Shown one piece after another: positions 1-2,676 of a stretch of 2,676 nucleotides of DNA. Under the pieces are notes generated by a model. It saw only the letters and a program-made list of their open reading frames with translations. It was not told the DNA's origin and searched no databases. The stretch's first letter is position 1. Each line of letters begins with the position of its first letter. The DNA comes from Escherichia coli (GTDB lineage: Bacteria > Pseudomonadota > Gammaproteobacteria > Enterobacterales > Enterobacteriaceae), in NCBI RefSeq assembly GCF_003334355.1, contig NZ_QOWP01000072.1; one strand, written 5' to 3'. The position numbers were made by a program, and so were the translations under genes.

Positions 1-394
1 TTTCTTCCGCCTCCCGGATCCGGAACAGTTTTTCTGCTTCCGTATCCTTCACCCAGGCTGTGCCGTTCCACTTCTGAAACTCCCCTTCCGGCGATAACCA
101 GGTAACATTTTTCGGTAACGGACCGAGTTCAGAAATAAATAACGCGTCGCCGGAAGCCACGTCATAAACCGTTTTACCCCGATGATCTTCAACGAGATGC
201 CACGATGACTCATCACTGTTGAAAACAGCCACGAAGCCAGCCGGAATATCTGGCGGTGCAATATCGGTACTGTTTGCTGGCAGACCTGTATGAGGCGGAA
301 TATATGCATCACCTTCACCAATAAATTCATTAGTTCCGGCCAGCAGATTATAAATTGTTATGGTCCGTGGTTGTTCACTCATTCTGAATGCCAT
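1..394 (-). CDS. tfa: Tail fibre assembly protein / fibre chaperone (Tfa family); 3'-partial (first 131 codons, 394..2, plus one base of the next codon; C-terminal part outside window)
   Basis: ATG at 394..392 on the minus strand. Hand translation gives [131 protein letters not shown] with no stop down to position 2. From memory this is near-identical to the N-terminal domain of lambda Tfa and E. coli prophage Tfa paralogues. Sits directly 3' of stf with a 1-nt overlap. The track's 49..330 minus ORF is a different frame of the same DNA. Confidence 0.93.
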
Positions 395-2676
395 TATGCA
401 AGCCTCACAATATAGTTAAATGCGATGTTTTTGACGGTGTTTTCCGCGTTACCAGCAGCGTTAACGGTGATGGTGTGTCCATGTGAGCCAATCGCAACGG
501 AGTGCGTATGAGCACCAATACCGACAGTATGTGCGTGTGCACCTGCGCTTGCAGCAGTACCCGATACAGAGTGCGTATGAGCGCCTGCAGAAGAAGTGTT
601 AACACTGTATTTAGAATAATCAGGTGATCCACTTCCCGGAGCACCACTGGAACCACCTGAAACAAATGTCATCGAATGGGTATGTGCACCGGCTGAAGCA
701 GCCGTACCGCTAACACTATGGGTATGTGCACCAGTGTTATTCGTGGATTTAGTGCCGTAATCAAACGATGATGTGGTTTTCGTCCCCAAATCCGTACTGG
801 ATGCGCTGGCGCTGTGGGTGTGCGATTTAATGCCGTCCTGTTCCTGAGACAATACGGCACGACCACTGGCGGGCTTGCCCTTAATCGTCCAGCCACGCAT
901 ATCAGGAATAACGCCTGACGGATAAGCCACTGCAAGTTTCGGGTATGCAGATTTGTCAAAAGTCTGCCCCTGCATCAGGGCATAGCCAGACGGAACGGTA
1001 TCTGATGGCCACGGGATTGGTGCGCCGACTGGGTAGCTTTCTGGTGGAAGATTTTTCGAGGTATAAACTTCTGCCCAGTCATCCTCAAAACCATAACCGT
1101 CTCTTGAAGAACGGTAGAACAGACCACCATTTCTGTAATGCGCCTTCATCTGCAGGGTCCGGCAACTTCCGACTCCGGTATAGAAGTTAACCAGAATATA
1201 GCTGTCGCCAGAGCGAGTGACATTGTAAGCGCCTGATTCGGCATTCCATGGAACGCCACCATCCGCATCGGCATATGTATCCGTTGCCCTTCTGGCAAAA
1301 GCAGCCACATGCGCGGCGGTTAAAGTAATATCTTTGGAACCATCAAACTCAACACCAGAAACCCGTCTTGGCGTTTGCAGCTTTGTTGCTGTTAATGCAT
1401 TACCGTTCAGACTTGCGGACAGTTTGGTTCCAATAACCAGTTCGCCGGTTGCGTTATCAATAGCAAACGGTCTTAATGTATTCCAGCCACCATAAACATC
1501 ACCTTGATTGGTAAGCAGCAGGTAAGTTTTAGCGCCATCATTACGCCATAATGCACCATACTCTCCACCTATCATTCGAATCTGATTACCACCACGCGCT
1601 ACAATTTCGTCTGTGGCAAAAAGTTTTTTGCACGACAAGTTATCGTTAACGATTAACGAATGAGACTCATAAAAACCACGCCCACTCTTAAAATCAAGGA
1701 TAACGTCCGCCGCGATACATTCAGTCGCTGGATTTGTTGCCCCAAACTTATAGGTCGTATCATTAACAACGAGATCAGCACCAGGTGCGGATATTGACAG
1801 GCCATCTTCGATAAACGCAAAAACAGGGAAAGCAGCGCCATCAACATAGAACACAGAGCGCAAATCATCGCCCTTATTACTCATCATTATTGAGTGGATG
1901 GCTCGTTCATTGTTTTGATATTGCCAGAACATTCCATAAGCATAACGCCCCCTGTCAGTCCAGCCACCAGGCATAACAAATCCATTAAACTCGCAGTTAT
2001 TCATCGGATCGCCTGCGGTTCGCGTTGCCGTGGTGATAATGACCCTTGATGCCAGTTCGCTTACTGAGCCAGCAGAACGCATAACAACAACAGGGTAATA
2101 TTTTCCAGATGTTGCACCTGCAGGAGCGTTAACCCGCACATAACGCATACCACGCTTATCAGCAAAGTCTGTTTTACTGACCGCGTTAATGTTGTTCAGG
2201 AAGCGTCCCTTATCGGGTATATCAGCGCCGTTCTGGTCTTTCTGCAGACGTTTCTCTGCATTGTCATAGGCTGATTTTACTGCCTTTGGCGTTGCCGCCA
2301 GCGTTTCAGACGTACTGTTGGTCGCACTGCTGAGCTGTACTATCCCCTTTTTCGTCGTGCTCGCATCCTCAAGCGCCACGGCGGATGCAATATCCTCTGC
2401 CCGTTTTGCTGCTGTCTCGGCGCGCGTTGCCGCGGATTCCGCCGTACTTTTGCTCTGAGCTGCCGCTGCCGCACTGCCAGCAGCCTCTGTCGCCTTCGTG
2501 GATGCCGTCGTGGCGCTGCCCTTCGCTGCTGACGCCTGTCTGGTCGCCTCATCTTTTGAAGCAGACGCAGATGATGCCGATGACGCTGCCGAACTGGCGG
2601 ACGATGCGGCTGCCGTTTTTGAGGATTCTGCACGGGTTTCCGACGCTTTCGCGTTCGTTTCGGATGTCTTCGCTGC
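394..2676 (-). CDS. stf: Side tail fibre protein, lambdoid Stf family; 5'-partial (N-terminus beyond window end 2676); 760 sense codons in window plus stop TAA at 396..394
   Basis: Hand translation of the minus strand from 2676 down is continuously open in one frame to TAA at 396..394. The track's 661-aa ORF (394..2379) is this frame cut at an internal GTG; upstream in frame reads [46 protein letters not shown]... with no stop or start codon. Contains the conserved tail-fibre motif [30 protein letters not shown], a collar-like motif ([39 protein letters not shown]) and a C-terminal HxH array ending ...[11 protein letters not shown]. Followed immediately by tfa, the canonical stf-tfa order. 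Family call is from recalled similarity to lambda/Rac-type Stf, not a search. Confidence 0.93.
403..407 (-). promoter_or_regulatory. Probable Shine-Dalgarno element for tfa (TGAGG) inside the last codons of stf
   Basis: Minus strand upstream of the tfa ATG reads TTGTGAGGCTTGCATAATG: GAGG at 406..403 lies 8 nt upstream of ATG (394..392). The stf stop TAA (396..394) shares its last A with the tfa ATG (TAATG). Confidence 0.5.
472..825 (-). repeat. Protein-level repeat array within stf: seven His-X-His motifs (SHTHS, AHTHS x4, AHAHT, SHGHT) in Gly/Ser/Ala-rich context; predicted metal-binding fibre-tip (needle) region
   Basis: Direct translation of the last 143 codons of stf: [10 protein letters not shown]...[27 protein letters not shown]...[66 protein letters not shown]. 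Visible on the + strand as recurring gtgcgtatgagc / atgggtatgtgc motifs. This is a sub-region of the stf CDS, not a separate gene. Confidence 0.75.
826..1041 (-). other. Collar-like segment of Stf ([63 protein letters not shown]), immediately N-terminal to the HxH array
   Basis: Direct translation. The pattern (aromatic/Ala-rich stretch followed by IPDMRG-W-KG) resembles the 'phage tail collar' motif recalled from T4-type and lambdoid fibre proteins. The domain call is from pattern memory only. Confidence 0.4.
2263..2352 (-). other. Conserved tail-fibre motif ([30 protein letters not shown]) shared among tail fibres of otherwise unrelated phages (P2 H, Mu S, lambda Stf, T4 gp34/37 class)
   Basis: Direct translation. 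From memory the motif closely resembles the conserved segment described in comparisons of P2, Mu, lambda and T-even fibre genes. Position is within stf, just C-terminal of the Ala/Ser-rich segment. Confidence 0.55.
2380..2676 (-). repeat. Ala/Ser/Thr-rich low-complexity segment of Stf (includes the [12 protein letters not shown] motif and a [15 protein letters not shown] tract); presumed extended fibre shaft/linker
   Basis: Hand translation of the same frame as stf: [97 protein letters not shown]. The DNA is GC-rich and dominated by GCN/TCN/ACN codons. Sub-region of the stf CDS. Confidence 0.7.

Follow-up and report, generated by a model that had tools for sequence, protein, structure and literature searches.

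Two identical 15-residue repeats with saturated silent sites in the T4 gp37-like tip of an Escherichia coli prophage side tail fibre

The tip of a side tail fibre (Stf) encoded by an Escherichia coli prophage contains the same 15-residue peptide twice, and the two DNA copies that encode it differ at 16 of 45 bases and 11 of 15 codons without a single amino-acid change. We studied these repeats in a stretch of 2,676 nt (contig NZ_QOWP01000072.1 of NCBI RefSeq assembly GCF_003334355.1; hereafter the window), which carries most of the fibre gene stf and the beginning of the chaperone gene tfa. It is highly probable that the two peptides are equivalent segments, one on the outgoing and one on the returning strand, of an iron-clamped needle of the T4 gp37 type, and that their silent sites have drifted to saturation. 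Below we describe the repeats, their place in the tip, their variation among relatives and the alternatives to this explanation.

Results

The same peptide is encoded twice by dissimilar DNA

A first-pass annotation of the window had reported one 15-residue peptide encoded at 732..688 (copy 1) and again at 585..541 (copy 2) on the minus strand. Our re-translation agrees, and the codon lists given for both copies are exact, all 11 codon differences being synonymous. At three codons serine switches between the AGY and TCN families, as had been pointed out (AGT/TCT, AGC/TCG and TCA/AGC). Each copy consists of a G-x-H-x-H box, hereafter His box, followed by the linker VSGTAASAG. The same annotation had sorted the four AHTH boxes of the tip into two codon sets; the sets are as described, but two of the four coordinate pairs were one base off, the correct positions being 729..718 and 687..676 for GCA CAT ACC CAT and 582..571 and 513..502 for GCT CAT ACG CAC.

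The peptide identity is far beyond chance, as the peptide remained unchanged in none of 300,000 trials in which 16 random substitutions were made, whereas the size of the DNA difference is within chance (see below). The longest in-register run of identical bases between the two copies is only 5 nt. A DNA-level repeat search of the window reported 20-nt His-box families and did not detect the 45-nt units, and Tandem Repeats Finder reported no repeat in the window.

The tip is homologous to the receptor-binding tip of T4 gp37

In a phmmer search against the PDB, residues 545-760 of the visible stf frame aligned with residues 26-242 of 2XGF chain A (E=8.7e-89). Seven H-x-H motifs, at residues 619, 651, 665, 700, 714, 723 and 732, each align with a box of T4 gp37, and the first Gly of copy 2 aligns with T4 gp37 G964. 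The 14-residue repeat PF03335 'Phage_fiber' gave six weak matches on the boxes, each with an E value of 0.043-5.6 and thus individually below significance; homologues of the tip carry PF03335 in precomputed domain annotation.

The T4 tip is built of a collar, a long needle and a small receptor-contacting head (PMC12609058; PMC6957217; PMC11705849). At the head the chain reverses its direction, which makes the needle six-stranded; its HxH motifs are conserved (PMC12609058), and seven irons along the axis are held by di-histidine motifs of the homotrimer, with six His per Fe ion (PMC6957217; PMC11705849). Substitutions H929A and H931A abolish plaque formation, and G964 packs against H929 of a neighbouring chain (PMC6957217).

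Transferred to the window, this architecture would assign a structural role to both repeats. The chain would run out along the trimer axis, make a small receptor-touching head and double back, and every iron ion would be bound by six histidines, contributed by one G-x-H-x-H box and the two symmetry mates of that box. Copy 1, that is box 2 plus linker, would form the last stretch of the outgoing strand ahead of box 3 and the head, and copy 2, box 4 plus linker, the first stretch of the returning strand, so that each copy would link two successive iron sites, 14 residues apart, in the same part of the narrow barrel. Because both copies would cross the same part of the same barrel, they would be held to one small-residue consensus, and stabilising selection would keep or restore the peptide. 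Since the copies do not homogenise each other at the DNA level, their silent sites would have drifted to saturation. The unit would be old, as it is found in both strands of T4 gp37 and of the lambda-type Stf, and the seven-box layout in common with T4 gp37 implies that the duplication, if any, would predate the split of these fibre families. Iron binding, trimerisation and the out-and-back geometry are predicted here from homology and the literature; the repeats themselves, the homology, the saturation and the mosaic boundaries are direct observations. As a feature, the repeats are of a known kind, ordinary for the well-known His-x-His needle repeats of a gp37-type tip.

Silent sites are saturated between copies and between lineages

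We collected 196 related loci from viral contigs, metagenomes and genomes and took the first and the last G-x-H-x-H-9-G-x-H-x-H unit of each tip as the two copies, which resulted in 64 distinct DNA copy pairs. As a null model the peptide was encoded twice independently with synonymous codons, drawn according to the codon usage of the gene itself or with uniform usage. Under the gene's own usage two such encodings are 10.4±1.7 codons and 12.6±2.5 bases apart, and the 11 codons and 16 bases observed in the window do not stand out (P(≥16 bases)=0.13); nor do the copies differ by more than chance under uniform usage. The proportion of synonymous differences (pS, Nei-Gojobori) between copy 1 and copy 2 is 0.73 and, the three Ser switches apart, that of nonsynonymous differences (pN) is 0. 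Comparisons of either copy with itself in other lineages give nearly identical values (pS 0.73 for copy 1 versus copy 1 and 0.72 for copy 2 versus copy 2).

Identical 15-residue peptides in both copies occur in 14 of the 64 pairs, with 10-20 base differences, and these 14 pairs span unrelated head inserts and distant metagenomic lineages. Among the relatives, 19 DNA versions of copy 1 and 10 of copy 2 encode the window's peptide, and this, together with the saturated silent sites and the pN of 0, bears out the earlier proposal of strong purifying selection on the peptide over a long divergence. Homologues with near-identical DNA copies, which according to the first-pass annotation would point to recent duplication or gene conversion, were absent from the 64 pairs: the smallest difference was 6/45 (L096, with two amino-acid changes) and the median 15. 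Partner copies are on average 14.2 bases apart, as compared with 13.1 for copy 1 and copy 2 taken from different pairs.

All 19 versions of copy 1 have an AGY codon for the serine at position 6, and copy 2 mostly has TCN, indicating that the two positions have long evolved separately. Switches between the AGY and TCN codon sets of serine are a general evolutionary phenomenon, with Thr as the classic intermediate. Among the relatives Thr, Asn, Ala or Pro is found at position 6 and Thr at position 8, and at the latter TCC, ACC and AGC make up a complete two-step path. In view of these tolerated residues the switches probably passed through intermediates, and the present identity of the two peptides is probably a return to a shared optimum rather than unbroken invariance. 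Position 7 (window 712..714 and 565..567) is occupied by the same aliphatic residue in most of the 64 pairs (V-V in 31, L-L in 14 and I-I in 5), by a mixture of V, I and L in 8 and by W, G or F in the other 6. The matching could reflect either co-evolution of the strands or shared cassette ancestry.

In one lineage, represented by L022, L024 and L031, copy 2 has AGY serines and is nearer to the copy-1-type DNA of other lineages than to other copy 2 DNA, which hints that a unit of the copy-1 type once moved into the place of copy 2.

The box codons were also considered as a record of duplication. Had a duplication of the pair of units been the last event, boxes 2 and 4 would be expected to be alike, and likewise boxes 3 and 5. 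This is not seen: in the window box 2 pairs with box 3 and box 4 with box 6, opposite to the expectation, and in other lineages the pairs are 3/6, 3/4, 2/4 or 2/6. As the sharing of box codons thus varies by lineage and the seven-box layout already exists in T4 gp37, the two-step duplication that had been read from the codon sets could not be upheld. The AHTH codon sets are ruled out as a duplication signature of the whole family, each lineage having pairs of its own.

The repeats frame a putative host-range cassette

Compared with eleven other lineages, the window is 93-100% identical at the nucleotide level upstream of copy 1 and downstream of box 5, 57-87% in the repeats and about 40% in the insert between box 3 and copy 2. 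In every lineage compared, codon 1 of copy 1 is where the divergence starts. Within copy 2, similarity resumes past codon 8-9 in L039, L033, L042 and L067, where the rest of copy 2 equals the window, and past codon 13 in L022; in the other lineages it resumes at box 5 or shortly beyond. At least seven unrelated head inserts are found between box 3 and copy 2 across the relatives. With the boundaries of scaffold, repeat and insert placed to the codon, the comparison shows the repeats to be the edges of a swappable, horizontally exchanged segment, a putative host-range cassette. Being situated at its edges, the two copies of a gene need not have the same history.

At two loci (L037 and L038) box 5 reads EHKH instead of AHAH, a charged pair at a presumed metal site that is unusual for the family.

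Natural deletions occur between boxes with shared DNA

Two loci, L081 and L082, have lost exactly 69 nt (23 residues) in frame, the missing stretch extending from box 4 to box 6 and corresponding to window 513..582 on the minus strand. At the ends of this deletion boxes 4 and 6 share 14 identical bases, GCTCATACGCACTC. The loss has occurred on two different head-variant backgrounds, L081 being from an ENA metagenome and L082 from NCBI assembly GCA_025250525.1, and the respective protein clusters have 11 and 2 members. The L081 fibre gene has only about 200-240 codons and directly follows a gene with J-type tail-tip domains, so it is probably a remnant. Shorter losses were found as well. L083 has lost 18 nt (TAASAG) of copy 2, window 544..561, between GGT...GGT, and L011 has lost 36 nt (about 652..687) and with them box 3, the T4 counterpart of which (H929/H931) is essential; both losses are in frame, and the fibre gene of L011 is nevertheless long and open (649 codons visible). 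Taken together, these natural variants indicate that homology-linked loss is a real mechanism in this gene.

In the window itself there is a 15-nt identical run between boxes 2 and 3 in addition to the 14-nt run between boxes 4 and 6. Two runs of at least 14 nt are mildly unusual (P about 0.01), and these long runs may reflect short local exchange, but they do not record a consistent history.

Alternative explanations

Several points weigh against the explanation by equivalent needle strands. The basis of the out-and-back assignment is an identity of about 65% with 2XGF. The pairs are non-identical in T4 gp37 (9/15 residues) and in lambda Stf (6/15), so the fold does not force identity and something lineage-specific keeps the copies of the window alike. 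Copy 2 of L022 and L024 is nearer to copy-1-type DNA (6-11 differences) than to other copy 2 DNA (15-18), and occasional exchange between the two positions may have taken place. In L096 and L113 the copies differ at just 6-7 of 45 bases. With 45 saturated bases, moreover, ancient duplication and convergence are indistinguishable.

Separate origins by mosaicism, copy 1 having come with the head cassette and all or part of copy 2 being resident, would be a compatible component of the needle explanation rather than its opposite, and we rate its chances a little short of even. The onset of divergence exactly at copy 1 and its end after codon 8-9 of copy 2 in four lineages fit it, as do L046 and L060, which have copy 1 in common and near-identical inserts but different copies 2. 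It would account for the difference in DNA and not for the identity of the peptides, however, so that purifying selection on both positions would still be needed, and the donor and recipient lineages cannot be named. Were the strands never copies of each other, the same peptide might have been reached by convergence or co-evolution through side-by-side packing in the barrel. The DNA is saturated and bears no trace of common descent, and position 7 is usually matched between partners whose DNA is unrelated. That matching may just be shared cassette ancestry, though, and the 19-residue spacing G-x-H-x-H-9-G-x-H-x-H is found on both strands in every lineage examined, T4 included, for which an old duplication is the simpler account; we regard convergence as unlikely. 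A chance similarity within a low-complexity segment rich in Gly, Ala, Ser and Thr has practically no probability left and is already rejected: the peptide is made of just six residue types and GAHTHS occurs four times in the tip, but all 15 residues are identical, random substitutions never preserved the peptide, and at least 14 distinct DNA pairs and several head types show the same identity.

The first-pass annotation had further proposed selection against nucleotide homology. Such adaptive recoding would drive the DNA copies apart, since homology would permit deletion of the intervening head by recombination or slippage. The 69-nt deletions at 14 identical bases on two backgrounds, the absence of near-identical copies from all 64 pairs and the short in-register run in the window speak in its favour. 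The DNA difference, however, equals that expected from random synonymous coding, partners are no further apart than non-partners, the same copy is equally saturated between lineages, and the 15-nt run of boxes 2/3 and the 14-nt run of boxes 4/6 have been kept, so homology has not been purged. In E. coli, RecA-dependent exchange is efficient only above about 20-25 identical bases, and a few silent changes would be enough to render a 45-nt repeat harmless. As the gene retains runs of 14-15 nt and the difference between the copies lies within drift, selection for recoding is not needed and cannot be demonstrated; we consider it very improbable. A broader version holds that repeats kept unlike as DNA and alike as protein are a design feature of the cassette, with the strands co-evolving (V, I or L at position 7) and the deletions between boxes 4 and 6 as its cost. 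Non-homologous edges would then prevent looping out of the head and would force incoming cassettes to recombine in register, each copy with its own counterpart, and the deletions would be the visible cost of homology that was not erased. This, too, seems quite improbable to us.

The fibre gene and its prophage

The visible stf frame matches the tail fiber protein family PHROG 295 (E=6e-198), and the gene directly after it matches the tail fiber assembly family PHROG 105 (E=1.5e-66), as would be expected of the chaperone gene tfa. At window 392..396 on the minus strand the sequence TAATG places the ATG of tfa over the stop codon of stf, an overlap that suggests translational coupling of fibre and chaperone. 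Over window 394..900 the tip shows 100% identity to the last part of a coding sequence for 1116 residues in a prophage of E. coli GB089, where the gene order is gpJ - Ail/Lom - 1116-aa fibre - tfa, that is J-lom-stf-tfa, with the fibre gene in the position of a lambdoid stf. RefSeq names this full-length protein 'prophage tail fiber N-terminal domain-containing protein', the N-terminus lying outside the window. In relatives Caudo_TAP genes come after the tip. The nearest isolated phages, 2H10, ev099, mEp332 and PhiR34_1, are lambdoid and 95-98% identical in DNA; the DNA of lambda matches over just 39% of the window. The tail-fibre PHROG matches, the lambda gene order in GB089 and the lambdoid relatives confirm that the label 'Stf tip' used before was correct. 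The features of the window are listed in Table 1.

Table 1. Features of the window (2,676 nt) that are relevant to the tail fibre tip
Feature	Position	Strand	Basis or remark
stf-type side tail fibre gene	394..2676	minus	Open reading frame; 5' end beyond the window edge; 760 codons visible, then stop codon 396..394
tfa, 5' part (tail fibre assembly chaperone)	1..394	minus	Translation; PHROG 105; annotation in a relative
Collar domain, residues 551-598 of the visible frame	883..1026	minus	Pfam Collar PF07484, E=7.5e-11; inside the 2XGF match; N-terminal to the needle
His box 1 (H-T-H in KSHTHS), outgoing strand	814..822	minus	Aligns with the first HxH of T4 gp37
Repeat copy 1: His box 2 + 9-residue small-residue linker	688..732	minus	Aligns with T4 gp37 residues 913-927; outgoing strand by homology
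His box 3 (AHTH)	676..687	minus	Equivalent of T4 gp37 H929/H931 by alignment
Variable head insert, 30 residues, presumed receptor-contacting	586..675	minus	Hypervariable between lineages
Repeat copy 2: His box 4 + linker	541..585	minus	Aligns with T4 gp37 residues 964-978; returning strand by homology
His box 5 (AHAH)	529..540	minus	Sequence
His box 6 (AHTH)	502..513	minus	14-nt run GCTCATACGCACTC in common with box 4
His box 7 (SHGH)	475..486	minus	Sequence

The tip family is present in 3908 of 5426 complete E. coli genomes, at up to six places per genome, with 160 places on plasmids; this abundance offers ample partners for cassette exchange.

The shaft (window 1026..2676, minus strand; residues 1-551) is a mosaic of modules known from other phages. 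It comprises a low-complexity stretch rich in Ala, Ser and Thr (residues 1-100), parts that resemble the phage Mu tail fibre protein S (residues 84-165 and 456-551; PDB 5YVQ, 8JU3), a Phage_fiber_2 repeat (residues 106-146) and a domain like the trimerisation domain of T4 gp34 (residues 307-421; PF21446; PDB 4UXE, 5NXF). In seven database proteins (P0027, P0043, P0046, P0048, P0093, P0106 and P0107) the fibre tip is fused to unrelated sequence, the partners including a terminase small subunit, a tail tube and a tRNA ligase C-terminal domain. These fused 'proteins' are probably chimeras of assembly or gene calling at a very widespread repeated prophage sequence.

Discussion

The practical value of these observations is modest: they describe a fixed frame around a swappable head in a very common E. 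coli prophage fibre tip. The edges of the cassette are placed to the codon, at the start of copy 1 and in the middle of copy 2 or at box 5, and they are therefore useful for engineering the host range of Stf- and gp37-type fibres, where they tell at which points chimeras can be joined; boxes with at least 14 identical bases, as a warning, can delete. For evolution the repeats are a clean textbook case, an old internal repeat whose peptide is conserved and whose silent sites are saturated, and not a new phenomenon. The AGY/TCN switches are compared here between two repeats in one gene rather than between orthologues.

A close parallel is the receptor-binding tip of T4 gp37, the structure of which (PDB 2XGF) was reportedly determined by Bartual et al. 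in 2010 (cited in PMC11705849 and PMC6957217). The window has in common with it the layout of collar, needle and head, seven HxH boxes that align one by one, the sequence of the C-terminus and the G-x-H-x-H-9-G-x-H-x-H unit on the outgoing and returning strands; over 216 residues the two are about 65% identical. Unlike those of the window, which are identical, the two T4 units (GGHTHSGSGSTSTNG and GNHSHTFSFGTSSAG) differ at 9/15 residues. The head insert of the window is unrelated to that of T4 in sequence, and its tip is mounted on the shaft of a lambdoid siphovirus Stf, not on a T-even distal half-fibre. PF03335 models exactly the His-box repeat, the Pfam unit being the box and not the 15-residue unit of box and linker.

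The exchange of cassettes likewise has a counterpart in the T-even phages, where Tetart et al. (1996 and 1998; summarised in PMC3157838) are said to have described exchanges of the tail-fibre adhesins gp37/gp38 at conserved motifs that frame variable specificity segments. Similarly, the cassette boundaries in the window lie at copy 1 and inside copy 2, and the natural deletion joins two boxes. Unlike in the T-even adhesin studies, the events reported here are deduced from prophage comparison, not from laboratory selection. With lambda Stf and with StfR/StfQ and Tfa of E. coli K-12 the window shares the gene order J-lom-stf-tfa and the overlap of tfa with the fibre stop codon, and in other E. 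coli genomes the same tip family bears the annotations stfR/tfaR and tfaQ. In the lambda-type tips, in contrast to the window, the copies (GAHAHSLSGSTGAAG and G[NS]HSHSLSGTAVSAG) have diverged, the head is longer and there is an additional box.

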